A model generated the notes under the pieces. That model saw only the letters and a list, made by a program, of their open reading frames with translations, was not told where the DNA came from and did no database searches. The position numbers were made by a program, and so were the translations under genes. From an uncultured delta proteobacterium (lineage in GTDB: Bacteria > Desulfobacterota > Desulfobacteria > Desulfobacterales > SG8-13): a stretch of 64,000 nt of DNA. The stretch is taken from NCBI GenBank assembly GCA_963779885.1, contig CAWAAN010000024.1:78277-142276 (forward strand), written 5' to 3'. Positions 12,367-34,525 of this stretch are shown in pieces; position 1 is the first letter of the stretch, and each line of letters begins with the position of its first letter.

Positions 12367-12468
12367 GCTTGCCCACGGGCATCCTTTCTGAGCTGTCTGG
12401 TTTCAGGTCGCTTATTTTCCCACAATTCCCGTAAAAAGGAAATCGGAAAAAGCCTTGCGACCGGCCGT

Positions 12469-13891: not shown

Positions 13892-13894
13892 TAG

Positions 13895-14902: not shown

Positions 14903-14934
14903 GCCGCACGCCTTTTTTTGTTGAAACGGCCGGT

Positions 14935-15822: not shown

Positions 15823-15850
15823 GATCGTCTCCTGAACCAGCGAACCGCGC

Positions 15851-17104
15851 TTACGGCATGGGAAAGACCGGGGTGTATTCCGCGCGCCGAGCCGCTTTGG
15901 GCCACACCGTAATGCGTTCCAGTCCGTTGCCCAGATCGTTGACCTGGACGATCGACAGGGCCGCATGTTTGTTCTGGCCGCTGGCGTCGAATTCGATCGC
16001 ATCGTAGGAGGCGATCATGGCCGGGCCGCTGCGCAGATCGGTTTGGGCCAGGGCGGCACGGATTTTTTCCGGATCGAGCGACCCGGCACGCTCCAAGGCA
16101 TCCCTGATGACATACATGGCGATGTACGCATCCACCGATTCGCCCGCCAGGTTGTACCCGTAGCGCGACTTGAACTTGGCGTTGATCTCCTTGACGCCCG
16201 GTTTGTTGACGTCGGTCTCCCATTCGACGATGTCAAAGAGGTAGCGGGCGTTGTCGCCGGTCGCCTTCAGGAAGGACGGGTCGGCATGGCCGCCGCCGCT
16301 GGCAATGATGGCCTTGGGCTTGACCTTGTAGTCGGCCAGGGTGTTGGTGAGAAGGATGGCGTCGGCGGCGTTGGACACCAGCATCAGCACATCGGGCCGG
16401 GCGCGCCGGATCTTCTGCACCACCGGGCTCAGGTCCGTGGCCGTCGATGGATAGGGCTCGTCCAGCACGATCTTGTAGCCGTTTTTCTCGGCCAGTGCGC
16501 GCCACTGGCCGGCAAAACCCTGCCCCCAGTCACCGTTCTCATAAACAAACGCCAACGTTTTGATCTCGGTCTTGAATTCCTGCTGGATATCCTTCAGGAA
16601 GGCGAACTGGTCACGGGTCCACCAGCTGTCCTTGGCGGCGATCCGGAAGATGGTCTTGAAGCCCTGCTCGGTGATCTTGTCGGCCACCGACACCGGCACC
16701 ACGAATGGGATCCCGTAGCGCTCGGCCACGGCGCTGGTCGGATAGGTGACGGCCGAATTCCAGCAGCCGGTCAGGAGGTGAACATTTTCGGTGTTGATCA
16801 TGCGCTCGGCTTCCGCCACCCCTTTTTCCGGCTTGGACTCGGAATCGGCATACAGCATCTCCAGCTTGGCGCCGCCCAGGGATTTGATGCCCCCGGCCGC
16901 ATTGATCTCTTCGACCGCCATGTCGCGTGCATTTTTCCCCTGCTGCCCCACCGATGCCGAGGGGCCCGATAGCGGGATGATATTGCCGACCCTGACCACC
17001 TTCTCCGCGGCCTGCAGGCCGGTGCCACCCGCGAATACCAGCATGGCCACCGCGACCGTCAAGCACAGCCCCACGTGATACGACTCGCTTTGACTACTTT
17101 TCAT
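15851..17104 (-). CDS. ABC transporter periplasmic substrate-binding protein (LivJ/K family)
   Basis: Trimmed to ATG 17104 (AAGGAGG upstream). It has a signal peptide and then VRVGNIIPLSGPSASVGQQGKNARDMAVEEINAAGG, typical of type-I amino-acid binding proteins. Confidence 0.85.
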   Translation of the reverse strand: MKSSQSESYHVGLCLTVAVAMLVFAGGTGLQAAEKVVRVGNIIPLSGPSASVGQQGKNARDMAVEEINAAGGIKSLGGAKLEMLYADSESKPEKGVAEAERMINTENVHLLTGCWNSAVTYPTSAVAERYGIPFVVPVSVADKITEQGFKTIFRIAAKDSWWTRDQFAFLKDIQQEFKTEIKTLAFVYENGDWGQGFAGQWRALAEKNGYKIVLDEPYPSTATDLSPVVQKIRRARPDVLMLVSNAADAILLTNTLADYKVKPKAIIASGGGHADPSFLKATGDNARYLFDIVEWETDVNKPGVKEINAKFKSRYGYNLAGESVDAYIAMYVIRDALERAGSLDPEKIRAALAQTDLRSGPAMIASYDAIEFDASGQNKHAALSIVQVNDLGNGLERITVWPKAARRAEYTPVFPMP

Positions 17105-17134
17105 GATGACGCCTCCTTGTTGACTGTTAACCAT

Positions 17135-17665
17135 TCACGGTCCCTCGGACCGCCATGACGTTAAAAAAACCATTTTATTTTTTTTATACTTGTAGGGTTT
17201 GACCTTGCTGGTCAGCGTCATCCCCAGGTAGGTGCGCCCGTGAAAGGCATTCTCGAAGGCGATGATGGCTTGCCGCCCGGTCTGGTAGCGGGCGATCTTG
17301 ACGGCATTTTCAACGGCCTCGGCACCGCTGTTGGCCAGCATGGCCGATTTCTCGAAATCGCCGGGGACCAGCTCGCAGAGCCTCTGCGCCAGCCGCACCG
17401 CCGGCTCGTAAGGCAGAACCATGAAACAGGTGTGCGTGAATTTTTCGGCCTGCTCCTTGATCGCCGCCACTATGCGCGGATGCGAGTGGCCGACGTTCAT
17501 CACGGCGATACCACCGGTGAAATCGATGTATTCGCGTCCCGTCATGTCATAGATCATGGCGCCCTCGGCCCGGGCGACATAACAGTCGGTGGCGCTCGCA
17601 AACCCTTTGGCCATCACCTTGTCCCGCAGCGCGGTCAACGACTCGGCAGTGGGGATTGTTTTCAT
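17135..17665 (-). pseudogene. truncated class-III (GABA/omega-type) aminotransferase, N-terminal ~165 aa only
   Basis: YIDFTGGIAVMNVGHSHPRIV, ANSGAEAVENAVKIAR and FHGRTYLGMTLTSKVKPYK match the first third of ~430-aa class-III aminotransferases. Homology ends at an AT-rich tract (17164-17192) and the frame stops at 17135. The PLP-lysine region is absent. Confidence 0.75.
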
Positions 17666-17741
17666 CGGCTCTCCTCCGGCATGTTTTTATTAAACAGACT
17701 ACAGGGGTCAACCCTTCAGTCAACTGCCTCCGGCTAAAGGC

Positions 17742-17843
17742 CCAAGGTTTGGGGTTCAAGGATTCGAGGATCCGAGGGGCCAAGTGAAAAAGACCCTTTC
17801 CGAACCTTTCCTTGAACCCTTGGACCCTGGACCCCTCGGATCC
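17742..17843. repeat. cluster of short inverted repeats with ~7-nt periodicity
   Basis: GGATCCGAGGGG (17768-17779) is perfectly complementary to CCCCTCGGATCC (17832-17843). CCAAGG..GGTTCAAGG (17742-17760) is complementary to CCTTGAACCCTTGG (17810-17824). The arrangement is interleaved rather than a simple hairpin. Confidence 0.6.
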
Positions 17844-18421
17844 TTATGGCGACATCATCCATTAAACTGAAGTCTTAGTATGGAAAGCAAAGGCTTTTTT
17901 CCCATTCTCCGAAGTGGGACAATAAAAACGCAGGTGGCCACAGCGCTGGACAGGTTATATCCCATGCGCAACACCGAAAGCAAGGGGCGGCACTGCCGAC
18001 CATTGGCAGTGTTATTGCATAAACTGGCACCACAGTGGGTATGGCGCAAACACCCCATGACGGTCGGATCGCGGTAAGCGTTCACAGCGCACCGCATCGG
18101 CGGCGTTGTCGGGCAATTGACGTACAACCGTCCGCCTGCGTGCCCGACGCCTGGCCTCTGCGACACTCTGTAACGGCTACAAATAGGTTATTTGAAGCGC
18201 ATCGAACTGTGCAATCCAGCGAACAGTTACGGATCGCGGCGCCTTTGACGGACCGCGCCATCGGGCCTTGATTGCCAGCTGTCCGGAAAAAGGTCACCGG
18301 ACGTTAGAGGCCCGTGAAAAAAATAGTGTGAGAGTGTGGTGTTAACTGCATACTTCCTGTGGAAATTGGGATAGAGTAATTGGGAAATATTTTACCGTCG
18401 GCTGCCCAACACACTGAATAA

Positions 18422-20578
18422 GTGAAAAATCCGCCCAAGATATTCAACAAGATCAACACAGCCATTCCGCTGCCGTGTCATCCCCGGGTTTTAATTGCGC
18501 TCAACCGCCTGTGCACCAGCGGGACAGCGAACTTGCGGGATATGGCCCGTTTGGCGACCATGGATCCCGCCCTGACGATTAAGCTCATGCGGCTGCCGCG
18601 GGCCGGCGACCTCATGACCTCCAGCCTCGAGGCGATCGAGCGGTGCATGGCCCGACTGGGCCCGGCAACCATCAAAAACGTTGCCCTCCTGGGCCTGAGC
18701 ACTCCGCTGTCGAATCCCTTGTTGTGGAAAACCGACGCTTATTTCAATCAGTTCTGGCTGCATTCGCTGCGCTGTGCGGTTCTCGCCCGATCGATCGGCG
18801 CGCACCTGTTGCCCGCGCTGGCCGATGAGGCCTACACCGCCGGATTGCTCCACGATGTCGGCAAGCTGCTGCTCTGGTCAAATTTTAAAAAGGACTACGA
18901 ACCGCTTTTCAAGAAGTCGGTTCAGGCCGACGGCGCTCTTCCAGCGGAAAACGACCGCATCGGCACCAACCACTGCGAAGCCGGATGGAGCGTGATCCGG
19001 GCGCTCAATACCCATCCGTTCGTGGCCGATGCGGTGTTGTATCATCACTGCCCTCTTGCGGCGGTCGTGAATGCCCTGCCGCTCGTTAAAATCGTTTTCC
19101 TCGCCAATATCCTCTGTCACCGGGAGCGCCGTACAGACCCGGTCGAACTCGCACGGACCCTCGGCCTCGATCTGCCGGTCGATCGGCTCGATCACATTTT
19201 AGCGCAGGCGCAGACCCAAACCGGGGCCCTTCTGGAAGAGGCGGGGGTGACCGCGGAAGCGCTCGAAAAAGGTCCTTCTCCCGCGGGCGATACCCGCGAC
19301 GCCGCCGTGCACGGCATCATCGGCGAATTCCGTGAGTTGTGCGTCCGGCACCTCACCTTCGAACATGCGCCCGGCGGCAGCGGGCCGGTGGCCATCCAAA
19401 AGAACCTGTGCCAAGTGTTTAACATCCTCTTCGATGTCACCGCCGCCCTGTTGTTTATCTACGATCCGCTGCGCGGCGTCCTGGTGAGCCGGCCCGCCGA
19501 AACGGCCGCCGGTCACCAGTCCGTCGAGCGGATCGAACTGCCGACGACCGCCGGCCGGAGCCTTCCCGCCCTCGCACTCGGCCATCGCCAGATTTACGAT
19601 TCTTTCGGGTACCTGACCCAAGAGGTGATCACGATCGCAGACGAACAGGTGATCCGCCTGCTGGATGCCGAGGGCATGCTGTGCCTGCCGCTGGTTCATG
19701 ACGGGCGCCCGATCGCTGTCATCTGTGCCGGCATCGACGAGCCGCGGTTCCCGCTCTTGTGGGAACAGCTGAATCTACTGACCACTTTTACCGACCAGGC
19801 TGCGGCGCTCCTCGATCCAACGCTTGCCGACGACACGCGGCCGTCCTCCGCCCGCCCAACGGGCGCGCCCCTGGATGACGAGGCCATTGGCCGCGTCCTG
19901 CACGAGGTCAACAACCCGCTGGGCATCGTCAAGAATTACCTGGCCGTGATCGGTGAAAAGATCGCCGGCCGCACCGACGTCAAGGCGGAGATCTCGCTGA
20001 TCCAGCAGGAGATCGAAAGAATCCCCGGCCTGATCGCCCAGTTGTCGGCCGCCCGCGCCAAACCCGCTGCCGGCGATGAACTCCTGGATATTAACGGCGT
20101 CATTTCCGATCTGTCGAAATTGCTGTCCGCCGCCATCCTCGAACCCGCGCACATCGCCCTGACATTCGTCCCCGAACCCAACCTGCCGCCCTGGCCCGGG
20201 AAGAAAAGCCACCTGAGCCAGGTGCTCATCAACCTGTTGATAAATTCCGCGGAAGCCATGCCCTCCGGCGGCCGCATTTTTATGACGACCGCCAGCGAGC
20301 CGGGCGCGGGAGGGACGGACGAAAGCCAGATCATCATCTCCATCCGCGACGATGGCCCCGGCATTCCCGCCCCAACCCTTGCCCGGCTCTTCGAACCCGG
20401 CGTCAGTGACAAGGGCGGCACTCATTTAGGCTTGGGCCTGTCGATCAGCAAGGAGCTTATCGACAGCTTCGGGGGGGCCATCAACTGCCGGAGCCGCGCG
20501 GGCCGCGGGACAACTTTTCGGATCAGCCTGCCGGTTTCGGTTCGCCGCCGCCGGTATCCGGACGCGAGGGACATATGA
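18422..20578 (+). CDS. HDOD-domain sensor histidine kinase
   Basis: GTG start. HDOD motifs are MARLATMDPALTIKLMRL and GLLHDVGKLLL. The H-box is HEVNNPLGIVKNY. The HATPase motifs are DDGPGIP and GLGLSISKELI. Confidence 0.85.
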   Translation: MKNPPKIFNKINTAIPLPCHPRVLIALNRLCTSGTANLRDMARLATMDPALTIKLMRLPRAGDLMTSSLEAIERCMARLGPATIKNVALLGLSTPLSNPLLWKTDAYFNQFWLHSLRCAVLARSIGAHLLPALADEAYTAGLLHDVGKLLLWSNFKKDYEPLFKKSVQADGALPAENDRIGTNHCEAGWSVIRALNTHPFVADAVLYHHCPLAAVVNALPLVKIVFLANILCHRERRTDPVELARTLGLDLPVDRLDHILAQAQTQTGALLEEAGVTAEALEKGPSPAGDTRDAAVHGIIGEFRELCVRHLTFEHAPGGSGPVAIQKNLCQVFNILFDVTAALLFIYDPLRGVLVSRPAETAAGHQSVERIELPTTAGRSLPALALGHRQIYDSFGYLTQEVITIADEQVIRLLDAEGMLCLPLVHDGRPIAVICAGIDEPRFPLLWEQLNLLTTFTDQAAALLDPTLADDTRPSSARPTGAPLDDEAIGRVLHEVNNPLGIVKNYLAVIGEKIAGRTDVKAEISLIQQEIERIPGLIAQLSAARAKPAAGDELLDINGVISDLSKLLSAAILEPAHIALTFVPEPNLPPWPGKKSHLSQVLINLLINSAEAMPSGGRIFMTTASEPGAGGTDESQIIISIRDDGPGIPAPTLARLFEPGVSDKGGTHLGLGLSISKELIDSFGGAINCRSRAGRGTTFRISLPVSVRRRRYPDARDI

Positions 20579-22708: not shown

Positions 22709-25700
22709 TCACTTTTCCTTGGTGCTCACAAGCAACTGGCCGGTAAACAGCATGCGGGCCGCCGCGCCGGTGTACCAGCTCCACCCGCCCCGGCCCTCGT
22801 AGCCCGGCCCGCAATAAACATCGGCCGGCTGCTGATGCGGCGGCAGGCCATAGATCGCCAGGTCTGCGAGGGCCAGGTGGCCGAGCGGTGAGATCTTGCG
22901 CCACAGACTCCGCGCTTTGGCCCGGTAATCGGCGGCGACTTTTTCTTCCCCCCGCCCCGTGGCCTCATCCGCCAGAACAAGCAGCGCATCGACCAGCCAG
23001 GACACACCGTGCGCATATTGGCCGCCGTTCTCGCGGACCCCCGGCGGATAATCGGCCAGCCGGCCGGGATAGACGGCGTCATTTTCGGTAAAAGGCGGCG
23101 CAAAGAGTTGGACGAGGGTCTCCTTTTCGAGTTCCCTCAGAGCCGTGGCCATGGCCTGCCGCCCCCTTTCCGGACCCGCGACGCCGGAGAGTATCGACCA
23201 GGCGGCCACCAGGGCGTTGGGGCGGGTCAGCGGCCGTCCACTATCGGTGTAATAGTTGACATACCGGTCTCCCAGCCACGTCGCGTCGAGGCGGTTTCTC
23301 AATGCCGCGGCTTTCGCCAGCAGCTCCTTCTGGCGGCCTTGCCCTTCTTTTTTCGCCGCCAGGTCGGCGAAGTGGGTCAAAACATCGTGAAAGAAGAATC
23401 CGAGCCAGACACTCTCGCCCCTGTTTCTGATCCCGGCCGCATCGAGGCCGTCGTTCCAGTCGCCGGCCCCCAGCAGCGGCAACCCGTGCGACCCGGTTTT
23501 CTGAAACGTGAGGTCGATCGCTTTGAGACAATGCTCATAGAGGCGCGCCGTGTCGCGGGAAGCACGCTGTGCCGCCACCTGCGTGGCGGCCTTTTTCCCC
23601 AGTGATCCGCCTTCCAGGTAAGGCGTTTTTTCGTCCAGAATTGGCCAGTCTCCCGTGGTGTTCACGTAATGGTAAACCATGTAAGGCAGCCACAGGTGAG
23701 GGTCCGAAGCCCGTCCACGGGCGCCTATGCCCGTTTTTTCCTCCCAGGATCGATGCCACCACTGCAAGACCTCCCCGCCGCGAAACTGCTGGGCGGCGTG
23801 ACGTAGAATCTGCCGGCGGGCCAGCTGGGGTTTGAGGTGAAGGAGCGGCAGGATATCCTGGAGCTGGTCGCGGAAGCCAAAGGCCCCGCTGCGCTGGTAC
23901 GGCCCCAGCCGGCCCCAGAGACGGGCCACCAGCACCTGATACGGCAGCCAGCAATTGACCAGCCGATCGAAGGCATGATCGCCGGAGCGGGCCGACGGCT
24001 CTCCGAGATATTGCCGCCACCACTGCCGGGTGTCGACAAAGGCCTGTTGAGCGGCGGAGACATCCCGAAACCTATGGATGATCTGAGCGGCGTGTTCCCG
24101 GCTGGGGGTCTGGCCGAATATAAAACTCACCGTCACTTCGCCTGAGGCGGGAACCTGCACCTCGCCGGCGAAAGCCGCGCAGCGAAAGCCGTCATCGGGC
24201 CGGCTCGCATCGGAGGTGCCGTATTGCAGCATGAAGGGATTGGTGAGGTCACGCCCGCTGCCGCCGAGGACTCTGGCCCGCACCGTCTCGAATGCGGCCG
24301 CCGTCAGACTCGTGGCGGCAAAGGCCCAGCCGCGCCAGTAGTCATTGTGAGGATTGGAGAAGAAAAGCGCGGCCAGGTCTTGGTCGTGTTCCGTGACAAT
24401 GCGGCCGCGCGTATCCACCGGCATCTCTCCCAACATGATCTGCCAATACGGTAGCACGCGATACACCAGGGGCTCTGCGGTGCGATTGCGAATCGTGAGC
24501 AGTCGGATCTCGGCCGGCTGGTCGGGTAAAACGAAATGACACATGTCAAGTTCGAGCGCCGCGCTGCGGTTTCGGGAAATCGAATAGCCCGGGCCCCAGC
24601 GCACATCGAAAAACCGGTCCTTTCTCCGCAAGGGAATGAAGGTGGGCGTATCCGCCTGGCCGGTCGTCCGGTTCAGCAGGTAGAAAACCTGCCCGGGCAG
24701 CTGCGAGGGAACCGAGTCGGTGTCAAACGGCGTCAGACCGTTTTGCTGCGAATTTTTCATGAAGGAATAGCCGGCGCCCTGGTTCGATACCACGCAGCCG
24801 TAGCCGAGGGGATTGGCCATCACATGACTCCAGGGACGGGGGGTGTGGCAGCCGACGGTCAGTTCGCCGCCGTCGGGTGCAAACCGGTAGCAAAGAGACG
24901 CGGGGTCGGCGCTGCCGGCTTTTTCCGCGGCGATGGGCCGGTTCAGGCGGCGCGTCCGGGTAAAGGCGGGCCAATCACGGGCATCCGCCGGCAGGCGCCG
25001 GCCCAGGTGTTTCGCGATGCGCGTCAAGGCCTGGTGCTCATCAACCCCATAACCGTCGACGAAGGTCACCGTGGCCGCGCCGAGCGGCGGCAGTTCGACC
25101 CGCAGGCACAGGCTGGCCACCGGGTCGAAGGTGTAGCACAGGCCTTCGTCCGCGGGGTCGCGCCGGCCGGCCGTCAGCCCCGCGGGCGCCGACAGCGTCG
25201 CGCGGCCGATGAAAAGCGAGCGGGAGTCCTGGTATCCGATGAGGGTGACCCCGTTCACGGCATCCTCTTTCACTGCGTGAAAGGCCGTCTCGGTCGAAGC
25301 CTGGCGCCCGGCCGTGTCCTTATGCGCCCGCTTGAGCCGGCGGTTGCCGGCCAGCAGGGCGCCCAGCGGACGAACGAAACGCGTGCCGATATGCAGGTGG
25401 TTGAAAAAAGGGTGGCGCTGGTAGGCGTCGGTGTTGTTCAGAGCGAACTCCTGATAACTGGTCAGCTCGATGATTCGGGGCCTGGGTTCGAGATTTCTCA
25501 ACTGCACGTGCCGGACTTCCACCGGTTCGGTCGCCCCCACGCGCAGAGTCACTGCGGCGCTAATGCCCCTTTGTTCGGTCGTCATTTCCAGGGCCAGCGG
25601 ATCGGGTTGCTCCATTCGGTAGTCGCCTTCCCGGCGCCGCACGGGGGCAAAACCAATCGACCAGAACCCAGCGGGATCCTCCGGCGCACCGGACCACTCC

Positions 25701-28150
25701 CGCAGATAAAAAAATTTGCCTCGCATCTGGAGCGGGTCATCCGGCCGGCGGGTGATATCGATCTCAAAGCCCTTTCGCAGGGCGCTGAAAACCCGGCTGT
25801 GCCCCCGGCCGTCGCCGGTGATCTCGGCCGTGTACGTGCCGTTGGACAGGACGAATTTTTCGTGTCCGTCCGGCGAAGGACGCCCCTGCGCCGCCCCTGA
25901 TAGCGGCCGAATGGCCGCCGGCGGCGACCGGCGTTTTTGGAGGGCGAAAAAAAGTCCCAGCGCACCGGCGACAAATAGAAATCCGCCCACGACATAGGTG
26001 ACCGGCGGCCAGGCGGTGGCGGCCCGCTGCGCGGCGCGTTCGGCCGAGGTTTGCCAGACGTAATTCCATTCCGCACCGCGTGGCAGGTAGAAGGGAATCA
26101 GCAGGGGCGCCCAGGTGGCAAACCGCCTCAAGCCCAGGGGCATGCAGCGGGTGCGGGCCGAATAACCGATGGCCCGGGCCGCCTTTTCGTCCAGGATGTC
26201 GACGCCGACAAAAGACAGATTGACGAGGGTGGCCACCCGCAGCCCCATGTGGTCGACCCAGATCAGAATGCGGAACCAGTCGTAGACCAGCAGGTTGAGG
26301 AAAACGTTCAGGCTCCACGCACGAAAGCTCTCGGGATCGAGGGTCCAGCTCTTGAACGTGGCCACGAGGGTCCGGATGGCGCCGTCCTGGTTGTACCAGG
26401 TCGGGTCCGGCGACATGCGCAAAAAGGAATAGATAATCGGTGCCATCCACAACCCCCACCGCAGAACGCGCACGGCCTGCTCGACCAGCCCGACCACCCC
26501 CTGGCGCGTCAACAACTCTTTCAAGGGTACGGTGCTGCGCTGGAGCATGGCATTGAGGACGACAAGGTTGATACTGAAAAGCGGCGCCGCCAGTGACCAG
26601 TTGATCACGCCCGAAAGCGCCTCGTTGTAAAGCAACCGGACACCGCCGGGAGTGTGGCCCAGGTTCAGGGCGCCCCATTTGCTGAAAAGCGGGTAAATGA
26701 CGTAATCGGCCACAGCCTTATCGGCCGCGGGATAGTAAAGTGCGGCGTATTTGAAGAACTTGCTGGTCAGCACCCGCAGCTGCAAGGTGTCGGCGTACCA
26801 GGCCAGTCCGCCGCCGGCGACGCCACCCAAAACGATCCCCAGGGCATACACCCGCCAGGCTTGGAGGCGCTGCCGTCTGCCGGTCAGCACATCGACGGCG
26901 TCCCTTAGAAAATCGACGCCCCCGTAACCCGCGGCACCGGCCAGAAACCCGAAAAAAAACCGTTCGTCGCCGCCGATCATCGGCAGGCCGTTGGCGAGGG
27001 CATCCCCGCCAAAGCCGCCCAGCACGGCCCCGCGCAGTAAATCGACGGTCTGGCGGTAATTTTGGCCGGCTCTCTGAAAAAACCGGCCGCTGCCGTCGAA
27101 GGTTTCGATGATGGTCTTTAGAAATGGGAAGACCAGGGCCCCCGCACAGGCGGAGAATATCACGGGGGCGGCCCTGGCCACTGAGACGACGGCGTCTACC
27201 CGCATCAGCACGGCCAGGAGTTGGACCATCGAAATGAACACCAGGCTGTAGACGGCCCCTTTGGAAAAACCGGACCGGAAGTGGTCGGAGCCCCAGTACC
27301 AGGTCGGCGGCTTGCCATGAAAGGCGTCCATGATCAGGCCGGTGATCAGGAAGGTCTGGCTCCAGAGACCCGCCTGGGAGAGCATGGCAAAAAAAAGGGC
27401 GGCCGGCACGGCAACGATCCAGGGCCGGCCGGCCAGGTAGGCGGCCGATCCCCAGTCGGCGAATTCCGGCGTGACGGCGGCCATCAGGGCGCTGCCCAAC
27501 AGCAGGGCGTGCACCCTCGCATCTGCGACCAAGCGCCTGACCACCAGCAGGCCGATCAGGTTGGCGACCGCCTCGTTGAACAGCCCCAAAATGACGCTGC
27601 GCCCCAGGAAAACCGGCAGCAGGGAACTGGCGGTCGCGCCGGACAGGGCCGCACCGCCGATCAGTCGCACGAGATCCGTGTTTCCGATGAGAAGCACCCC
27701 ATTGAAAAGGGAGGGAATCACCAGAATCGTGCCGGCCAGCAGCGGCGGAGGATGCCGGCCGGCAACCAACAGACGTTGCACCACGGCCAGGCTGTAGATC
27801 ATGGTAAAGAGGCTCGCGGCCAGGCCGGTCATGACGAAAGGGTCATTAAGCGTCCTGGGCACCTGCCATAGGTCGAGGCCGGCCCGCACCCAGAGCGCAA
27901 AGAGGGCCGACACGAGAAAGTCCTGAAAAGCTTCGACCCCTGTGAGCCACTTCCCGGTGAATTGCCACTTAAAGAATCCGGCCGCCAGCAGTCCGAAAAC
28001 GCCCGCCGGCAGGGCGCTCACCCACCCTTGCCCCCGAGCGGTGGCATAAATGGAGGCCGCCGCGGCCAGGGTGCCACACCAGAAAAGGGGCCCGCCGGGC
28101 ATCAGACGGTCTTTGGCAACTGCGCCTTTTTCGTGCACCTTCTCTGTCAT
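22709..28150 (-). CDS. multi-pass membrane domain fused to a GH94-family glucan phosphorylase (1,2-beta-oligoglucan phosphorylase / cyclic-glucan-synthase C-domain like)
   Basis: 1813 aa. The N-terminal ~740 aa is almost entirely hydrophobic segments. The C-terminal ~1070 aa carries GFRDQLQD, EVLQWWH, SDPHLWLP and LLGAGDWNDGLD, typical of GH94. Confidence 0.85.
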   Translation of the reverse strand: MTEKVHEKGAVAKDRLMPGGPLFWCGTLAAAASIYATARGQGWVSALPAGVFGLLAAGFFKWQFTGKWLTGVEAFQDFLVSALFALWVRAGLDLWQVPRTLNDPFVMTGLAASLFTMIYSLAVVQRLLVAGRHPPPLLAGTILVIPSLFNGVLLIGNTDLVRLIGGAALSGATASSLLPVFLGRSVILGLFNEAVANLIGLLVVRRLVADARVHALLLGSALMAAVTPEFADWGSAAYLAGRPWIVAVPAALFFAMLSQAGLWSQTFLITGLIMDAFHGKPPTWYWGSDHFRSGFSKGAVYSLVFISMVQLLAVLMRVDAVVSVARAAPVIFSACAGALVFPFLKTIIETFDGSGRFFQRAGQNYRQTVDLLRGAVLGGFGGDALANGLPMIGGDERFFFGFLAGAAGYGGVDFLRDAVDVLTGRRQRLQAWRVYALGIVLGGVAGGGLAWYADTLQLRVLTSKFFKYAALYYPAADKAVADYVIYPLFSKWGALNLGHTPGGVRLLYNEALSGVINWSLAAPLFSINLVVLNAMLQRSTVPLKELLTRQGVVGLVEQAVRVLRWGLWMAPIIYSFLRMSPDPTWYNQDGAIRTLVATFKSWTLDPESFRAWSLNVFLNLLVYDWFRILIWVDHMGLRVATLVNLSFVGVDILDEKAARAIGYSARTRCMPLGLRRFATWAPLLIPFYLPRGAEWNYVWQTSAERAAQRAATAWPPVTYVVGGFLFVAGALGLFFALQKRRSPPAAIRPLSGAAQGRPSPDGHEKFVLSNGTYTAEITGDGRGHSRVFSALRKGFEIDITRRPDDPLQMRGKFFYLREWSGAPEDPAGFWSIGFAPVRRREGDYRMEQPDPLALEMTTEQRGISAAVTLRVGATEPVEVRHVQLRNLEPRPRIIELTSYQEFALNNTDAYQRHPFFNHLHIGTRFVRPLGALLAGNRRLKRAHKDTAGRQASTETAFHAVKEDAVNGVTLIGYQDSRSLFIGRATLSAPAGLTAGRRDPADEGLCYTFDPVASLCLRVELPPLGAATVTFVDGYGVDEHQALTRIAKHLGRRLPADARDWPAFTRTRRLNRPIAAEKAGSADPASLCYRFAPDGGELTVGCHTPRPWSHVMANPLGYGCVVSNQGAGYSFMKNSQQNGLTPFDTDSVPSQLPGQVFYLLNRTTGQADTPTFIPLRRKDRFFDVRWGPGYSISRNRSAALELDMCHFVLPDQPAEIRLLTIRNRTAEPLVYRVLPYWQIMLGEMPVDTRGRIVTEHDQDLAALFFSNPHNDYWRGWAFAATSLTAAAFETVRARVLGGSGRDLTNPFMLQYGTSDASRPDDGFRCAAFAGEVQVPASGEVTVSFIFGQTPSREHAAQIIHRFRDVSAAQQAFVDTRQWWRQYLGEPSARSGDHAFDRLVNCWLPYQVLVARLWGRLGPYQRSGAFGFRDQLQDILPLLHLKPQLARRQILRHAAQQFRGGEVLQWWHRSWEEKTGIGARGRASDPHLWLPYMVYHYVNTTGDWPILDEKTPYLEGGSLGKKAATQVAAQRASRDTARLYEHCLKAIDLTFQKTGSHGLPLLGAGDWNDGLDAAGIRNRGESVWLGFFFHDVLTHFADLAAKKEGQGRQKELLAKAAALRNRLDATWLGDRYVNYYTDSGRPLTRPNALVAAWSILSGVAGPERGRQAMATALRELEKETLVQLFAPPFTENDAVYPGRLADYPPGVRENGGQYAHGVSWLVDALLVLADEATGRGEEKVAADYRAKARSLWRKISPLGHLALADLAIYGLPPHQQPADVYCGPGYEGRGGWSWYTGAAARMLFTGQLLVSTKEK

Positions 28151-28205
28151 GTCCGTTCCCGGTTCCGTCGCAAAGCATTGCTGAGACAGGAACTAAAGGT
28201 CTTGA

Positions 28206-28361
28206 GGGCTCACTCAAAAAAAGCGTCACATTCAAGACGCCGATAAATTCCGTCCTCCCGCGTTGCGAAAACTCGGAATATACAAATGTTCCTGCGTTTT
28301 CACGCCTTGACGGCCGGGCGACTCAACGCCGAAAATTGTGACCTTAATCTTTCGTGAGCCC
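28206..28361 (+). mobile_element. MITE-like palindromic repeat, copy A (156 bp)
   Basis: Terminal inverted repeats GGGCTCAC...GTGAGCCC, with TGA on both flanks (28203-28205 and 28362-28364). 125 of 156 positions are identical to the reverse complement of copy B in my ungapped manual alignment. Confidence 0.7.
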
Positions 28362-28442
28362 TGAGACCGGCAGGCGGGCGATCACCGGACAAAGCGGCTC
28401 CCGCGCGGAAACCAGCGCTTCGTTTAGTGATCGGCGGTCGCA

Positions 28443-30020
28443 TCAGGGTTGATAGACATAGCTCCAGGTTTCACTGAGCACGTCGGGACCTCTTTTCAAA
28501 AAGGCCCTGATTTCGATCGGGCCCGCCGGTCCGGGTTCGGCCGGCTTTTCAGGGTCGATCTGAAAGACCAGGCGCCAGTGACCGGTTTGCGGTACTTTGG
28601 CGAGCTGCTGTTCGACAAGGGTGGCATTGGGGCTGACATGGACGGCCGCTGCGAGCGGCTGATCGCCGGCCAGCGAGGTGAGGTCGCCGCCGGTGAAATC
28701 GACCACGAACTTACGCAACCCGGGTGCTTTGCCGTCGGCCGTGCGGGAGGCATCCACATACGCGCCCGGCGGGCGATGCCCGTCGGCGAAGTAATGCCAG
28801 CTCATGCGGTAGTCGAAACTGACGGGCTGGCCGACCGGGGGCGGGGTGGCGGGGACCCAGAAGGCCACGATGTTGTCATGGATCTCTTCGTCGGTCGGGA
28901 TCATGATCAACTGCACCCGCCCGTCGCCCCAGTTGCCGACCGGCGCCACCCAGAGGCTGGGCCGATTTTCATAATTGCTTTCGATGTCCTGGTAGTGGTC
29001 ATACGCCTGGTCCCGCTGCAGCAGACCGAAGCCTTTGGGGTTGGTCATCTGAAAGGAGGTCACCAGAAGTTTGGGCGGGTTCACCAGCGGGCGCCAGATC
29101 CATTCGCCGGAGCCGGTCTCCATCATCAAGCCGTCGGTGTCGTGAATTTCGGGCCGAAAGTCGTCTACCGGCCGCGGATACGTGTTTTCACCATAAAAGA
29201 ACATGCTCGTCATCGGCGCAATGCCGAGTTGCTCGATTTTTCGCCGGGGCAAAAGAGTGCTTCTGACATCCATCACCGTCTCTTTTCCAGGATGAATGAC
29301 AAACTGATAGGCACCCACAATGCTGGGGCCATCGAGAATGGCATAGAGGGTGAGCGTCTTCGCGTCGGGGGCCGGTTTTTGAATCCAGAACTTGCGGAAG
29401 TACGGAAATTCTTCACCGCTCGGCAGAGTGGTGTCAACGGCCAGCCCGCGGGCCGAAAGGCCGTAGTTCATGTTTTGGCCGACCGCCCGGAAATAGCTGG
29501 CCCCGAGAAACACGGCCACCTCGTCCTGATATTCCGGTGTGTTGATGGGATAGTGGATGCGAAACCCAGCGAAGCCCAGATCATCGGGCACGAGGTCCGC
29601 GACCCTTTTTTTCTTGTAGTCGAAGAGGTCCTTCGAAAAGCGCACCGGATGGATGGTGCCCGACGGTTCGATCACGTTTATCTTCACCGTCCGATCGAAA
29701 TAAAGGCCCGGATGAAAGAATTGCAGCGTAAAGGGCAAATTTTCGTCGCGCCACAGGGCCTTGGGCGGCTTGAAGCGAATGTCACGCCAGTCGTCATAGT
29801 CGATCTTCATGAGCCGCTCGGGCACTTCGCCCGCGGGATTCATGTAAGGTGATTGGGAAAGCCGGCGGGCTTCATCGACCGCCGTTTCAAATGTAAAGGG
29901 GGTGCTGGCCGCGGCCGCGGAGAGATCGAGCCGGGCACAGCCGCTGAAAAGGGCGAGAGGAAGAAAAAGAAGAAAAATGTGACGGTGGCGGAACCAGTCG
30001 AAAAATTTCAACATCATCAT
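28443..30020 (-). CDS. opgG: periplasmic glucan biosynthesis protein, OpgG/OpgD (MdoG/MdoD) family
   Basis: 525 aa with a signal peptide or lipobox-like FSGC. Motifs YDDWRDIRF, LQFFHPG, FAGFRIHYPIN, YFRAVGQ and EFPYFRKFWI are typical of MdoG. Confidence 0.9.
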   Translation of the reverse strand: MMMLKFFDWFRHRHIFLLFLPLALFSGCARLDLSAAAASTPFTFETAVDEARRLSQSPYMNPAGEVPERLMKIDYDDWRDIRFKPPKALWRDENLPFTLQFFHPGLYFDRTVKINVIEPSGTIHPVRFSKDLFDYKKKRVADLVPDDLGFAGFRIHYPINTPEYQDEVAVFLGASYFRAVGQNMNYGLSARGLAVDTTLPSGEEFPYFRKFWIQKPAPDAKTLTLYAILDGPSIVGAYQFVIHPGKETVMDVRSTLLPRRKIEQLGIAPMTSMFFYGENTYPRPVDDFRPEIHDTDGLMMETGSGEWIWRPLVNPPKLLVTSFQMTNPKGFGLLQRDQAYDHYQDIESNYENRPSLWVAPVGNWGDGRVQLIMIPTDEEIHDNIVAFWVPATPPPVGQPVSFDYRMSWHYFADGHRPPGAYVDASRTADGKAPGLRKFVVDFTGGDLTSLAGDQPLAAAVHVSPNATLVEQQLAKVPQTGHWRLVFQIDPEKPAEPGPAGPIEIRAFLKRGPDVLSETWSYVYQP

Positions 30021-30231: not shown

Positions 30232-31878
30232 CTACCGGAACTGTTTGCGCAGGGCCCTTTTGTTGAGTTTGCCGACGCTGGTCTTGGCGATGCTCTCGAC
30301 CAGCAGCACCTGGCCGGGCACGCCGAACTTGGGGATCGTCCCGTTCTGCACGAATTTCATGAAAAAGTTCAGCAGGTCCTCTTCCTTGACTTTGCCCGCG
30401 AACTCTTTTTTCAGAACCACCAGGGCCAGGGGGCGTTCCCCCCATTTTTCGTCGGGTACGGCGATGACCGCCGCCTCGCTGACGGCCTCGTGCTGGCTGA
30501 TGATGTCTTCCAGGGTCAGCGAGGAAACCCATTCGCCGCCGGACTTGATGACATCCTTGATCCGATCGGTGATCTTCAGGTAGCCGTCACCGTCGATGAA
30601 CCCCACATCGCCGGTGTGCAGCCAGCCGCCACGCCACAGCTCTTCGCTGCGCTCGGGTTCCTTCAGGTAGCCCTGGGTCAGCCAGGGCGCGCGGGCCACC
30701 ACCTCCCCGGTCGCCTGGCCGTCGTGCGGCAGCGATTTTCCTTCCGGATCGACGATGTCGAGAACGACGTTGGGAATCGGCAATCCGGTGCGGCAGCGGA
30801 TGTCGACCTGCCGGTCCCGGTCCCATTCCAGCATGTGCGGCTTGAGGTTGGCCAGGGTCAGGATCGGGCAGGTCTCGGACATGCCGTAGCCGGTGAAAAC
30901 GTTGATTCCCAGATCGAGCGCCGCCCGGCAGAGACCCTTCGGCAGCGCGGAGCCGCCGATGATCACTTTCCAGTGCGACAAATCGACCTTCTTGACGGCC
31001 GGGCTGGACAGCAGCATGTGCAGGATGGTCGGCACGCAGTGAGAAAACGTGACGTTTTCCGCGGCGACCAGTTTCAGCAGCATTTCCGGTTCGTAGCGGC
31101 CGGGATAGACCTGCTTGGTGCCCAGCAGCGTCATCAGGTAGGGGATGCCCCAGGCGTGGACGTGAAACATCGGCGTCATGGGCATGTAGACGTCGCCGGA
31201 ATCGATGGTGGCCTGGGTCTTGTAGGCGCACAGCCCCGCCAGGATGCCATAGGTGTGCAGCACCAGCTGGCGATGGCTGAAGTAAACCCCCTTGGGCAGG
31301 CCGGTGGTGCCGGTGGTGTAGAAAGTGGTCGCCATCGTGTTTTCATCGAAATCGCCAAACTCGTAGCCCCCGTCGTTCTCACCGAGCAGGGCCTCGTATT
31401 CCCCCGCGATGGCCAGGGCGGTCGGCGGCGCCGCGTCGGCATCATTGATAAGGATAATCTTTTTAACCGTTTCGAACTGGTCTTTGACCCCCTCGAGCAA
31501 TGGTAAAAACTCGGCGTTAACCAGGATGATGTCGTCCTCGGCGTGGTTGATGGTGTAAATGAGCTGCTCGGGCGACAGGCGCACGTTGATGGTGTGCAGC
31601 ACGGCGCCCATCATCGGCACCGCAAAAAAACACTCCAGGTAGCGGTGGCTGTCCCAGTCCATCATCGCCACGGTATCACCCGGCTGAACGCCCTGCCGCT
31701 GCAGCATGCCGGCCAACCGTGTCACGCGGTTGAAAAACATGTCATAGTCGTAGCGCACCCGGTCGCGGTAGACGATTTCCTGTTGCGGAGCATGGATTAG
31801 GGGGGTCGACAGCATGTTCTTGATCAGGAGCTGATGCGGATAGGCTGACGGAGTTCGGTGGATCTGTTTGGCCGGCAT
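30232..31878 (-). CDS. AMP-dependent acyl-CoA synthetase/ligase (FadD-like)
   Basis: Trimmed to ATG 31878 (AAGGAG upstream). Motifs YTTGTTGLPKGV, TGYGMSET, GWLHTGD and IKSGGEWVS are present. Confidence 0.9.
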   Translation of the reverse strand: MPAKQIHRTPSAYPHQLLIKNMLSTPLIHAPQQEIVYRDRVRYDYDMFFNRVTRLAGMLQRQGVQPGDTVAMMDWDSHRYLECFFAVPMMGAVLHTINVRLSPEQLIYTINHAEDDIILVNAEFLPLLEGVKDQFETVKKIILINDADAAPPTALAIAGEYEALLGENDGGYEFGDFDENTMATTFYTTGTTGLPKGVYFSHRQLVLHTYGILAGLCAYKTQATIDSGDVYMPMTPMFHVHAWGIPYLMTLLGTKQVYPGRYEPEMLLKLVAAENVTFSHCVPTILHMLLSSPAVKKVDLSHWKVIIGGSALPKGLCRAALDLGINVFTGYGMSETCPILTLANLKPHMLEWDRDRQVDIRCRTGLPIPNVVLDIVDPEGKSLPHDGQATGEVVARAPWLTQGYLKEPERSEELWRGGWLHTGDVGFIDGDGYLKITDRIKDVIKSGGEWVSSLTLEDIISQHEAVSEAAVIAVPDEKWGERPLALVVLKKEFAGKVKEEDLLNFFMKFVQNGTIPKFGVPGQVLLVESIAKTSVGKLNKRALRKQFR

Positions 31879-32101: not shown

Positions 32102-34525
32102 TTACGACCAGTCCGGCACCAACCGCCCGTCAGGCTGCCGGCGGTAGGGCAGCCACAGTAAGCCGAAAACCTCGAGCGCCATGTCGGTGCTCCGGGGGGT
32201 TACCCGCACTTCGTCCAGCGGCTCGCTCACGGGATCGTGGTCGGCGGTCAGCGCGTCGATATCTTTTTGCAGGCGCTCTTCGAGTCCGGCAAGTTTGCGG
32301 TCCACCGCGGTGATCGTTTCCTGGGCGCGGGTGACATCCATCTGTTCCTTGCCCAGCCGCCCGGCCGACTTTATGGCCGCGCCCACCCGCGTCACGTTGC
32401 GCGAGCTGACGGCCTTGCGGCCCAGAAAAGACCCCAGGATGGCCGTGCCGAAGGAAATCACGCTCTCTATTTTTCGACTCTGGACCTGTTCCTGCTCCCG
32501 CGCCAGGATTTGTTCGGCCCGCAAGCGGCGGTCCTTGAGAGCGGCGAACTTTTCCCCATACTTACGGCGCAGGTTGTCGGCCGCAAGATCCCGCTGTTCG
32601 CGGGCGGTCAGAGTGAGCCGCGCCCGGAAGGCCCCTTCGGTCTCACCGGGAGAACTGGTCATTTTAAACTGTTTGGACTGGTAAAGGAGCAGGGGACGGT
32701 TCTGCCGGACCCAGCGCAACATGTCCTTGGACCATTTTTTGTAGTCCCCGGCCCGGTTGGCGGCCGCCGGCAGATCCTTAAAGGCGGCCCCGGCCAGCGG
32801 GGACCCGGCCAGGCCGCCGGCAGCGCCCACCAACTCCAGGGCCTGGTCCCAATCGACCGGCAGAGGCCCGTCTTCGAGGGGTGCCGCCAGGGCGACGGTT
32901 TTACCGACATCGACACCGTAGCCGCTGTGGCTGTAATGAACATTCAGCCAGCCCCCGGCCGCCGGGACATAATAAAGGCCCTGGCCCGCGCCCGAGGCCG
33001 GCAGAAAAAACACCGCGACACCGGTCGGGGGAAGGGGCGGATACCCGCTGCCGGCAGTCGGCGGTGGCACCCAAGACGCGCCGGGCGGCGGTGGTGCGGC
33101 CGGCGCAGGGTCACCGGCGAGCGCACCGGCGCCAAGCATCTTGATCTGCTCGCGGGTCATCGGCCCCGCCAGATAAGACAAGGTCCAGCGGGTTTCGAAA
33201 ACCACCGGTTCACTGTCGTGCACGTTATTCATCAGAAACACCCGTTGACCGAGACCGGCCAGGATTTCACCCATCTTCTGCCGGTTGAACCGCGCACCGG
33301 CCGCGGCGCCTTCGAGCCCGGCCATCACGCGCTCTTTATCGTTCGCGGTCTGCAGCCGCCCGATAAACCAGGTGCCGGTGTTGGCCAGGCCCTTGTAATC
33401 GAGATCGACCGGGTTCTGGGTCGCCAGCACCACCCCCAGACCGAAAGCCCGGGCCTGTTTCAACAACGTCAACAGCGGCGGTTTGGACGGCGGGTTTTTC
33501 ACCGGCGGAAAGAACCCGAATATTTCGTCCATGTACAGGAGCGCCCGCAGGCTGGCAGTCCCCGGCTGGGTCCGCACCCAGCCGAGGATTTCATTGAGCA
33601 GCAGGGCGGTGAAGAACATGCGCTCGGCCTCGGACAGGTGGCCGATGGCAAAGATCGCGGCGCGGGGCTTACCGGCGGGGGTGTGCAGCATCCGGCCGAT
33701 GTCCAGTGGATCTCCGGCAAGCCAGGCGTCGAAGCCGGGGGCCGCCAGCAGGTTGTTCAAGCGCAGAGCCAGCTGGAAACGCTCCTTGGCGGGATAAAAC
33801 GACTCCAGATCCATCACCCCGATACGTTCCAGCGGCGGTTGCTGAATGAGCCGGATGAGTCCGGCGAGGTCCATGCCGCGGCCGGCGCTCCAGGCCTGCT
33901 CGAAAATGTTGGAGATCAGAATGTGCTCGCGGCTGTTGAGGGCTTCGGCCTCGATGCCCATCAGGGTCAACAGCGCGGTGACCGTCGTTTGGATCCGTTC
34001 CCGGAACACGTCGCTGTCCGCGCGAACCTCCGGCGACGGCGCGGCGAAGTTGCGCAGAACGTTGACCGGCAAACCGGCGCTGCTGCCCGGCGTGTAGACG
34101 GCAAAATCGGCGGCGGCGCGCAGCCGGGCAATTCGCTCGGGCTCCTGGTCCCACGTTGCCAACCCGTCGCGCCACTGGGCGGCGGTTTTTTCGGCCAACT
34201 GCTCGGCGTCCATTCCTTGGCGCGCCGCGTCACCGGGTTGGATCCAGGGCCGGAAGTCCTGCGGCTGCAGATCGGGAAAACCGAGCAGCAGGTTGGCGAG
34301 ATCGCCCTTGGGATCGATGGCGATCACCGGGATGTTGTCGATCAGCGCTTCCTCCAGCATCCCGATCCCCAAGCCGGTCTTGCCGCTGCCGGTCATGCCG
34401 ATGATGACGGCATGCGTGAGAAGGTCCCTGGAATCATAGAGAAGCGGTTCATCCCGCCGTTTGCGGGCGGCGAGGTCGAAAAATTTCCCCAGATAAAACA
34501 CCCCCAGTCTTTCGTAAGCCTTCAT
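32102..34525 (-). CDS. HerA/FtsK-like P-loop ATPase with Pro-rich linker and coiled-coil tail (function unknown)
   Basis: 807 aa. Walker A is GMTGSGKTGLG, Walker B is LLYMDEIFGF, and ATQNPVDLD is present. A Pro-rich tract follows (AAPPPPGASWVPPPTAGSGYPPLPPTG), then heptad-like charged C-terminal segments. Confidence 0.7.
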   Translation of the reverse strand: MKAYERLGVFYLGKFFDLAARKRRDEPLLYDSRDLLTHAVIIGMTGSGKTGLGIGMLEEALIDNIPVIAIDPKGDLANLLLGFPDLQPQDFRPWIQPGDAARQGMDAEQLAEKTAAQWRDGLATWDQEPERIARLRAAADFAVYTPGSSAGLPVNVLRNFAAPSPEVRADSDVFRERIQTTVTALLTLMGIEAEALNSREHILISNIFEQAWSAGRGMDLAGLIRLIQQPPLERIGVMDLESFYPAKERFQLALRLNNLLAAPGFDAWLAGDPLDIGRMLHTPAGKPRAAIFAIGHLSEAERMFFTALLLNEILGWVRTQPGTASLRALLYMDEIFGFFPPVKNPPSKPPLLTLLKQARAFGLGVVLATQNPVDLDYKGLANTGTWFIGRLQTANDKERVMAGLEGAAAGARFNRQKMGEILAGLGQRVFLMNNVHDSEPVVFETRWTLSYLAGPMTREQIKMLGAGALAGDPAPAAPPPPGASWVPPPTAGSGYPPLPPTGVAVFFLPASGAGQGLYYVPAAGGWLNVHYSHSGYGVDVGKTVALAAPLEDGPLPVDWDQALELVGAAGGLAGSPLAGAAFKDLPAAANRAGDYKKWSKDMLRWVRQNRPLLLYQSKQFKMTSSPGETEGAFRARLTLTAREQRDLAADNLRRKYGEKFAALKDRRLRAEQILAREQEQVQSRKIESVISFGTAILGSFLGRKAVSSRNVTRVGAAIKSAGRLGKEQMDVTRAQETITAVDRKLAGLEERLQKDIDALTADHDPVSEPLDEVRVTPRSTDMALEVFGLLWLPYRRQPDGRLVPDWS

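Follow-up and report, generated by a model that had tools for sequence, protein, structure and literature searches.

The 64-kb stretch of DNA analysed here (64,000 nucleotides of contig CAWAAN010000024.1 from an uncultured member of the Desulfobacterales; the window below means this whole stretch) carries on its minus strand a two-gene beta-1,2-glucan module, in which a gene for an OpgG paralogue is followed by a gene for a giant fusion protein. The fusion joins a novel polytopic membrane domain to a glycoside hydrolase family 94 (GH94) phosphorylase of the type found in Cgs, the synthase of cyclic beta-1,2-glucan. The module stands beside the canonical OpgG/OpgH synthesis and does not replace it. 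We read it, with a probability of about one half, as a periplasmic endo-enzyme paired with a membrane conduit that is fused to a phosphorylase, for the salvage of glucan or the turnover of osmoregulated periplasmic glucans (OPGs). The enzymatic halves are known families. Novelty lies in the way they are combined, in the membrane domain and in the conserved partnership, and full-text literature searches returned no paper on a membrane-integral GH94 of this architecture or on its link with OpgG. The two genes and the spacer between them are:

28443..30020, minus strand: opgG paralogue, coding for a periplasmic GH186/MdoG-family beta-1,2-glucan enzyme of 525 aa (Pfam, PDB matches, tree).
28151..28442, minus strand: intergenic spacer from opgG to the fusion gene (consensus scan).
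22709..28150, minus strand: fusion gene, coding for the novel polytopic membrane domain and the Cgs-type GH94 phosphorylase, 1813 aa.

A preliminary description, made from the letters alone, had placed two co-directional minus-strand genes here, and both open reading frames (ORFs) were found at exactly those coordinates. Their G+C content at third codon positions is of the coding type (0.73-0.78) and homologues of each number in the hundreds, which marks them as real genes rather than chance ORFs.

The GH94 half of the fusion is matched by two Pfam families, both with scores far above the curated cut-offs: the supersandwich (PF06165, residues 1104-1346, E 3e-73) and the catalytic domain (PF17167, residues 1377-1802, E 2.2e-68). 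All three motifs that had been noted in the last ~1070 aa were located, GFRDQLQD at residues 1425-1432, QWWH at 1463-1466 and GAGDWNDGLD at 1561-1570. The parts of this half are:

25067..25873, minus strand: N-terminal sandwich of GH94 (the counterpart of Cgs subdomain GP1), residues 760-1028, aligning to residues 1536-1782 of Cgs (8rf9).
22745..24928, minus strand: GH94 supersandwich and catalytic (alpha/alpha)6 domain, residues 1075-1802 (Pfam, alignment to Cgs).
23855..23878, minus strand: GFRDQLQD motif, with an identical R-D-Q-L-Q-D in Cgs and columns nearly invariant in the family.
23441..23470, minus strand: GAGDWNDGLD motif with the putative catalytic Asp, equivalent to Cgs D2528 (alignment to Cgs).

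When the GH94 domain was compared with the PDB sequences using phmmer, Agrobacterium Cgs was the best match by far with 438-440 bits, whereas the cellobiose, chitobiose, laminaribiose and cellodextrin phosphorylases reached 150 bits at most; Cgs leads any other GH94 enzyme by ~290 bits. The 1,2-beta-oligoglucan phosphorylase (SOGP) went undetected in the same search even at E<=10. As to the clade, which the preliminary description had left to be settled, the sequence thus sides with Cgs and not with the cellobiose/chitobiose phosphorylases (~150 bits for the cellobiose enzyme) or SOGP. The identity to Cgs is ~36-38% over fusion residues 760-1028 and 1075-1799, the latter aligning to Cgs residues 2019-2737 with 412 bits, and the layout of two sandwiches and an (alpha/alpha)6 domain is the same. 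In both proteins the GH94 domain is tethered to the inner membrane on the cytoplasmic side, a location that is predicted in the case of the fusion.

The catalytic DWND Asp, RDQLQD and QYxHG of Cgs are all kept: the columns of D-W-N-D, RDQLQD and ENGGQYAHG (the QYxHG motif) are nearly invariant across the fusion family and conserved in Cgs. We take the Arg of GFRDQLQD to be phosphate-binding, as in GH94 enzymes, and RDQLQD and QYxHG to have a role in the phosphate site. The catalytic residue of Cgs is D2528 (PMC11842490), and its equivalence to the Asp of the fusion relies on an assumed numbering offset of 19 residues. In place of the RFL subdomain of Cgs, which spans 166 aa (residues 1847-2012; PMC10901819), the fusion has a 46-aa linker (residues 1029-1074), so RFL is absent from it. 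Taken together, the GH94 domain is predicted to be a catalytically intact, cytoplasmic phosphorylase, and we infer its beta-1,2 specificity solely from homology and gene context.

Unlike Cgs, the fusion possesses no Cgs N-terminal domain, no GT84 domain and no GH189 cyclase (no PF10091 or PF13632 match; hhalign E 0.64). It is also much shorter (1813 aa vs about 2800-2900 aa), and it has ~18 predicted membrane helices of unmatched fold against six in Cgs. These helices form the following N-terminal domain:

25916..28150, minus strand: N-terminal membrane domain, residues 1-745, all-helical, with ~18 membrane passes and both termini cytoplasmic (inferred topology).
26231..26470, minus strand: most conserved membrane-embedded motifs, RVLRWGLWM (residues 561-569), WYNQDG (585-590) and DHMGLRVA (633-640), in invariant or nearly invariant columns.

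The first ~740 aa had been noted as almost continuously hydrophobic, and residues 1-745 indeed make up a hydrophobic, all-helical polytopic domain. In an AlphaFold2 (AF2) model based on 59 homologues (pLDDT 85, pTM 0.85), this region consists of ~25 helices and is helical throughout save for one small hairpin, with no Rossmann-type, GT-A or GT-B sheet. No Pfam family was matched even at E<=10, and no NCBIfam model. A Foldseek search of the PDB, on which our statement of no known fold is based, gave no fold match (best E 0.85, TM <=0.16), and residues 1-760 are unlike the solved GT-C, GT2 channel, MFS, ABC, SEDS and MOP folds. No profile similarity to Cgs residues 1-1650 was found by hhalign (E 0.64), nor any internal duplication or inverted repeat when six segments and the two halves were aligned with each other (all E >0.04). 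A glycosyltransferase hidden in residues 1-745, for which the preliminary description had proposed a structural search, is ruled out by these Pfam, NCBIfam, AF2, Foldseek and hhalign results. Its statement that the fusion and the window lack GT2 and GT84 domains also stands, since neither was recognised in residues 1-745 by Pfam or fold prediction, nor in the 32 large ORFs scanned across the 64 kb (30 besides opgG and the fusion).

Fifty-six columns of the membrane domain are invariant among the 59 homologues, including E349/D352, R564/W565/W568, W585-G590 and D633-R638, several of which lie inside predicted membrane helices. The invariant core is rich in Trp, Tyr, Asn, Gln, Asp, His and Arg, and two of the three motifs listed above were enough as search patterns to recover the family from GTDB genomes. 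Such conservation, with charged and aromatic residues inside transmembrane helices, goes far beyond the needs of an anchor; the motifs may take part in sugar binding or proton coupling. The topology was derived from helix hydropathy and charge, together with the extra signal peptide, carbohydrate-binding modules (CBMs) and transmembrane helix of distant members. Because these members start with a signal peptide, CBM-like modules and one more helix, the N-terminus of the core domain would be cytoplasmic and the machine would face a periplasmic glycan. The GH94 domain is predicted to be cytoplasmic because a positively charged segment follows the last membrane helix. These 745 aa constitute a new family of membrane proteins and probably a fold not seen before.

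The fusion is widely distributed. About 95 clusters of full-length homologues (~1800 aa, grouped at 90% identity) are present in public data, under names from automated pipelines only ('cyclic beta-1,2-glucan synthetase', 'GT36' or 'hypothetical'). A HMMER search of the membrane domain against 1.84 billion representative proteins returned 436 relatives; among the best 150 of these, all that are long enough appear to have the same architecture, to be fragments of it or to be N-terminally extended versions. More than 546 GTDB species-representative loci from at least seven phyla encode the domain, and the hosts include Desulfobacterales, Desulfovibrionaceae, Desulfomicrobium, Geminicoccaceae, Nevskiaceae, Methylocystis, Anaeromyxobacter and Omnitrophota. 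In the Planctomycetota, Omnitrophota, Elusimicrobiota and their relatives, the protein is extended by a signal peptide, one to four repeats of a ~150-aa module and one extra membrane helix. The module was modelled by AF2 as a beta-sandwich (pLDDT >90), with CBM11, CBM4, CBM22 and CBM61 as best PDB matches (E 5e-6, TM 0.57) and CBM11 as the closest.

The partner encoded upstream of the fusion was described from the start as an MdoG/OpgG-family protein, and a full-length Pfam MdoG match bears this out (residues 42-522, E 1.5e-194, profile positions 1-477 of 478 covered). Among PDB sequences, EcOpgG (8ip2/1txk) scores 453 bits (E ~1e-134), ahead of XccOpgD (388 bits) and EcOpgD (341 bits). Two features of the protein deserve mention:

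29937..30020, minus strand: OpgG signal peptide with a possible lipobox LFSG/C at residues 24-28 (read from the translation).
28857..28880, minus strand: HDNIVAFW motif, containing the putative general-acid Asp equivalent to EcOpgG D361 and EcOpgD D388 (alignment to 8ip2).

The general acid of EcOpgG is D361, for which D388 is the equivalent in EcOpgD (PMC10514313). The Asp of HDNIVAFW aligns with the mutated position of 8ip2, a D361N mutant, and is kept in 20 of the 21 OpgG paralogues compared. Loop A, which tunes the hydrolytic activity of EcOpgG and EcOpgD (PMC10514313), is ~8 residues shorter here than in EcOpgG according to the alignment, and equally short in the fusion-linked and OpgH-linked paralogues of Desulfobacterota. 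In a neighbour-joining tree, which carries no support values and is indicative only, the window OpgG falls within a clade of fusion-linked Desulfobacterota OpgGs, apart from the OpgH-linked ones. Judging from its sequence, the window OpgG is a dedicated paralogue, a periplasmic GH186 enzyme, possibly lipid-anchored, in which the general-acid Asp is intact. If the lipobox (LFSGC, window 29937-29951) is functional, the fusion-linked OpgG may be a membrane-tethered lipoprotein, unlike the soluble OpgG of E. coli; the SGC motif is retained only in the closest relatives (L002, L005 and L008 of our locus survey, whose numbers are used below), and the more distant fusion-linked OpgGs have ordinary signal peptides. 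One OpgH-linked paralogue, that of 'Desulfobacterium sp. TRIP AH-1' (L014, 2836-4500, minus strand), carries Asn (ENNNNIV) where the general-acid Asp would be and may be catalytically inactive; its orthologue in L016 retains the Asp.

The survey covered 80 GTDB loci, 42 of them with full flanks. OpgG adjoins the fusion in 24 loci of the whole set and in 16 of those with full flanks; it is the only recurrent, functionally relevant neighbour among the 80. It lies upstream of the fusion in one set of loci and downstream in another, on the same strand in all but one; the spacer, 292 nt in the window, measures 32-586 nt in the related loci where opgG is upstream.

A second kind of partner is a PF10091 enzyme. 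In an Omnitrophota locus (L074), the gene directly downstream of the fusion codes for a secreted PF10091 protein. Closest to it in the PDB are the GH189 cyclisation domain TiCGSTg (8wy1, E 7e-43) and the cyclase region of Cgs (3e-41), followed by 8xuj (EeSGL1), 5gzh and GH144 beta-1,2-glucanases; hmmsearch of the protein's N-terminal region for the CBM-like repeat of the fusion was negative. A gene for a PF10091/DUF3131 protein 48% identical to it lies ~900 bp from the fusion in an Elusimicrobiota locus (L091), where the flanks also hold secreted proteins with CBM_11 and CBM9 domains and a Peripla_BP gene. Another shares a co-directional cluster with the fusion in L092, and a fourth lies ~6.8 kb downstream of it, at the locus edge, in L090.

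The third kind is a conserved protein of ~700 aa, here called Y, which directly follows the fusion in five loci (L001, L087, L088, L089 and L092). Four of the five are from Planctomycetota, and the sulfatase-rich context of L092 suggests Kiritimatiellota or a relative; its gene order is four sulfatases, the fusion, Y, the PF10091 enzyme and an SSF symporter. A weak similarity links Y to the beta-1,2-glucanase EeSGL1 (phmmer E 8e-5, profile 1e-3), the structure of which is 8XUJ (PMC12102758), and its motifs are colinear with the cyclase domain of Cgs.

Since three unrelated or distantly related families of beta-1,2-glucan enzymes share the neighbour slot, beta-1,2-glucan is the likely substrate of the fusion. 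The functional unit is an extracytoplasmic endo-enzyme together with a membrane-integral GH94. Other neighbours were rejected as partners: the ABC-F ATPase beside the fusion in, among others, Geminicoccaceae is of the translation-factor type and was put down to lineage synteny, and FtsK, adenylate cyclase, CbiG and a HEAT-repeat protein (L090) were judged incidental.

The preliminary description had taken the fusion to act instead of OpgH, as an OpgH-independent route to periplasmic glucan, and this claim fails. No OpgH is encoded within the 64-kb window, but opgH occurs with its own opgG paralogue in metagenome-assembled genomes (MAGs) of the same species, and it stands beside the fusion in four related loci. 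One MAG, WAL90, contains fragments of the fusion (WAL90_02250 and WAL90_17610, in a cluster at least 90% identical to the window fusion) as well as an OpgH (WAL90_10045, cluster P0386), and the exact OpgG sequence of the window, MFZ0240439.1, is next in number to WAL90_02250. The same-genome argument uses locus-tag prefixes and runs of accession numbers, being direct for this MAG; for three further fusion-carrying MAGs (WAO07, WCD88 and WAM61), sequential accession numbering suggests that they too hold P0386 copies of OpgH. OpgH in these lineages belongs to a canonical opgG(545 aa)-orf181-opgH operon with a distinct OpgG paralogue.

In L014 and L016, opgH and a second opgG are divergent from the opgG-fusion pair (opgH<-opgG2, opgG1->fusion); in L028 the order is fusion->opgG->opgH; and in L045 a C-terminal OpgH fragment, seen by tblastn only, opens the contig ahead of fusion->opgG. 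The OpgH proteins of L014, L016 and L028 score 907-918 bits with the NCBIfam MdoH equivalog model, for which the cut-off is 419. They were also the only three matches in a GT2 screen of 70 large neighbours (two confirmed directly, that of L014 by inference). Compared with the OpgG-OpgH pair of E. coli, the module likewise places the gene of a periplasmic OpgG, with its general-acid Asp kept, beside that of a large inner-membrane protein that has beta-1,2-glucan as its known or predicted substrate. The membrane partner in the window, however, has neither a GT2 domain nor homology to OpgH, a true OpgH with its own OpgG is found elsewhere in the species, and the Loop A region is ~8 residues shorter. 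What does survive of the preliminary description is its alternative, a membrane-coupled module for glucan recycling or length control, which fits the added evidence better than the OpgH-independent route does.

How, then, could the module work? In the reading that we favour, the periplasmic endo-enzyme would first cut or remodel periplasmic beta-1,2-glucan, either the backbone of the cell's own OPGs or glucan of other bacteria. The membrane domain would pass the chain or oligosaccharide so produced on to the cytoplasmic side, where the fused GH94 domain would phosphorolyse glucose units off the non-reducing end and release alpha-glucose-1-phosphate (Glc-1-P). The outcome would be an ATP-sparing salvage, along with control of the level or length of the periplasmic glucan. 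For the CBM-less subfamily of the window, which is linked to opgG and sometimes to opgH, turnover or salvage of the cell's own glucan is likely, by analogy with glgP, which lies within glycogen operons.

That the membrane domain transports glucan, and that the flow is inward and degradative, are proposals built on several lines of argument. Fusion usually joins consecutive steps, so the domain is most simply seen as a conduit that connects a periplasmic glucan with the GH94 site. In the cytoplasm phosphate is in large excess over Glc-1-P, so that the reaction of GH94 enzymes goes in the direction of phosphorolysis in vivo. The GH94 domain of Cgs itself works phosphorolytically (PMC10901819), and the established way of breaking down beta-1,2-glucan combines an endo-glucanase outside with a phosphorylase inside (PMC3960220, PMC11842490). 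Inward flow is favoured because of the phosphate excess, the presence of OpgH, this catabolic logic and the catabolic-looking clusters of the CBM-bearing members; and since OpgH coexists in the same MAGs and adjoins the fusion in L014, L016, L028 and L045, a second synthase is not needed.

The known catabolic clusters for beta-1,2-glucan, which combine a GH144/SGL endo-glucanase, a sugar transporter and a soluble SOGP, have the same order of steps: an endo-enzyme outside, membrane passage, and cytoplasmic GH94 phosphorolysis to Glc-1-P (PMC3960220, PMC11842490). Neighbours of the PF10091/SGL clan in L074, L091 and L092 (and, ~6.8 kb downstream, in L090) add to the likeness. The differences are that the membrane part of the fusion is joined to the phosphorylase instead of being an ABC, MFS or SSF transporter, that its GH94 is of the Cgs clade with SOGP undetected by phmmer, and that the endo-enzyme in the window is OpgG (GH186), with no beta-glucosidase or regulator near the pair.

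Several observations weigh against inward salvage. Foldseek against the PDB and hhalign revealed neither the fold of a known transporter nor an internal repeat in the membrane domain, and the domain has no ATPase partner that could energise transport. The neighbourhoods of the window's CBM-less subfamily are housekeeping-like and lack sugar-catabolic genes. In phylogeny the GH94 domain is closer to Cgs, a biosynthetic machine, than to SOGP, a catabolic enzyme, and its beta-1,2 specificity comes from homology and context only. GH186 and GH189 include transglycosylases that finish glucan synthesis (PMC11842490), so the identity of the partners does not fix the direction of flow. The link of Y to SGL is weak (E 1e-3 to 1e-4).

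The opposite direction, that of a synthase and exporter driven by Glc-1-P, we consider unlikely. Here the GH94 domain would polymerise beta-1,2-glucan and the ~18-helix domain would export the chain reducing end first, perhaps on the proton gradient, to be cut or cyclised by the periplasmic OpgG, GH189-like or SGL-like partner; the result would be a second route, free of glycosyltransferases and nucleotide sugars, parallel to OpgH. The domain inventory is that of Cgs minus GT84, supplemented in Omnitrophota and Elusimicrobiota by a secreted homologue of the Cgs cyclisation domain. The separate, fusion-dedicated OpgG lineage of Desulfobacterota mirrors the opgG-opgH pairing, and the window's subfamily occurs in housekeeping contexts rather than in ones resembling polysaccharide utilisation loci. 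The proton gradient could drive export by way of the Asp, His and Arg in the membrane core.

There are also analogues for such a machine. BcsA is a catalytic GT2 domain fused to its own membrane channel, which uses UDP-glucose and has periplasmic carbohydrate-binding domains at the exit, and the periplasmic sugar-binding modules of the extended fusions recall BcsB at the exit of cellulose synthase. GlgE is a soluble GH-type enzyme that polymerises glucan from a sugar-1-phosphate. BcsA-BcsB and GlgE serve as analogues for this alternative alone and have no sequence or fold relation to the fusion. GH94 enzymes of the SOGP type readily make beta-1,2-glucan from Glc-1-P in vitro (PMC3960220); the GH94 domain of Cgs itself, however, is phosphorolytic (PMC10901819). 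Further points against synthesis are that no energy-coupling module was found, that no primer-forming activity is evident, that the same genomes, and in some cases the same cluster, also encode OpgH, and that the CBM-bearing members lie among sulfatases, CBM proteins, a symporter and glucanases. The cytoplasmic ratio of inorganic phosphate to Glc-1-P is unfavourable as well.

It is improbable that the fusion serves length control or editing in trans, its GH94 domain trimming glucan made by OpgH while the membrane domain docks to the synthase or senses the membrane or osmotic state and no glucan crosses. The nearest characterised relative is a length-controlling domain, the GH94 of Cgs (PMC10901819), and opgH clusters with the fusion in the four loci named above; most loci, however, have no opgH nearby. 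A domain of 745 aa with 56 invariant columns and many polar and aromatic residues inside its helices would be excessive for docking, and the periplasmic CBM-like modules and extracytoplasmic partners indicate a periplasmic substrate. Moreover, GT2 synthases, on the model of BcsA (cited in PMC10901819), keep the growing non-reducing end in their own active site, so a separate GH94 would lack access to the chain. Least probable is that the fusion has some other beta-glucan or glycoside as its substrate, or mainly senses or regulates, with only an indirect link to beta-1,2-glucan enzymes in either case, for although GH94 specificity is read here from sequence in a family that holds several specificities, and CBM11, the closest match of the module, binds beta-1,3-1,4 and beta-1,4 glucans, three independent neighbour families (GH186, the PF10091/GH189-GH144 clan and the SGL-like Y) indicate beta-1,2-glucan and Cgs outscores any other GH94 enzyme by the ~290 bits given above.

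In the window, the genes adjoining the pair are an acyl-CoA synthetase gene upstream and two convergent sensor kinase genes downstream, so the pair stands alone. The spacer contains a weak terminator-like hairpin (28222-28241, minus strand; consensus scan only), which may be due to chance. The only match to a regulatory RNA, a fluoride riboswitch upstream of the locus (30451-30516, plus strand), is below threshold (19.5 bits vs a gathering score of 34) and outside genes, and may likewise be fortuitous. The sole glycosyltransferase among the scanned ORFs is an unrelated GT4 ~20 kb away (2063-3145, plus strand), which forms a pair with a methyltransferase at the left end of the window (2063-4104, plus strand). 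Two genes upstream of the module, an 807-aa protein (32102-34525, minus strand) gives only a weak HerA/DUF87 P-loop match and is syntenic in the close relatives L002-L004. A 176-aa ORF (17135-17665, minus strand) covers just the first ~150 of 403 positions of a class-III aminotransferase profile and directly adjoins the next gene, which suggests the remnant of a truncated gene.

Outside the window, the canonical Desulfobacterales operons contain between opgG and opgH an ORF of 181-205 aa with no Pfam match, overlapping the start of opgH (L082 7466-8011, L083 820-1365, L084 614-1159 and L085 7387-8004). It may be the OpgI of the opgGIH operon of Rhodobacter (PMC10514313). A GlgX/isoamylase-like GH13 protein, judged from its sequence, is encoded just upstream of a three-CBM fusion in Omnitrophota (L076, 5729-7801, plus strand), and L024 has a copy with 42% identity (2438-4510, minus strand), ~5.5 kb upstream of its fusion. 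In L090, a Kiritimatiellae locus, an MsbA/NdvA-type half ABC exporter (ABC_membrane and ABC_tran, 580 aa) followed by the PF10091 enzyme lies ~5 kb downstream of the fusion (16931-18905), reminiscent of NdvA/ChvA, the exporter of cyclic glucan. The fusion and Y of cultured Isosphaeraceae are plasmid-borne and annotated as hypothetical (Paludisphaera borealis PALBO1 11380-19472, L087; Aquisphaera giovannonii pOJF2_1 8116-16450, L088); the fusion has the accession WP_076351704.1 in P. borealis PX4 and WP_148599143.1 in A. giovannonii. In L001 (ERZ25039474 contig_1413, 10001-18385), the planctomycete fusion and Y are broken into many short called genes, which looks like frameshift errors of a long-read assembly rather than true pseudogenisation.

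The beta-1,2-glucans, as OPGs and cyclic glucans, act in osmoadaptation, envelope signalling, symbiosis and virulence, and their enzymology has been opened recently by GH144, GH162, GH186 and GH189. The present finding defines a large, previously undescribed family within this field, with the more than 546 species loci and at least seven phyla given above, and the existence of cultured carriers such as P. borealis and A. giovannonii makes experiments feasible. Under either direction of flow, the 745-aa domain is a new membrane-protein family, probably with a new fold, for which there is a clear candidate substrate. If the synthase alternative were true, the fusion would be a polysaccharide synthase independent of nucleotide sugars. 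If salvage is its function, it would represent the first glycan phosphorylase to form one protein with a membrane conduit of its own, a case of vectorial phosphorolysis, and periplasmic glucans would be actively recycled.

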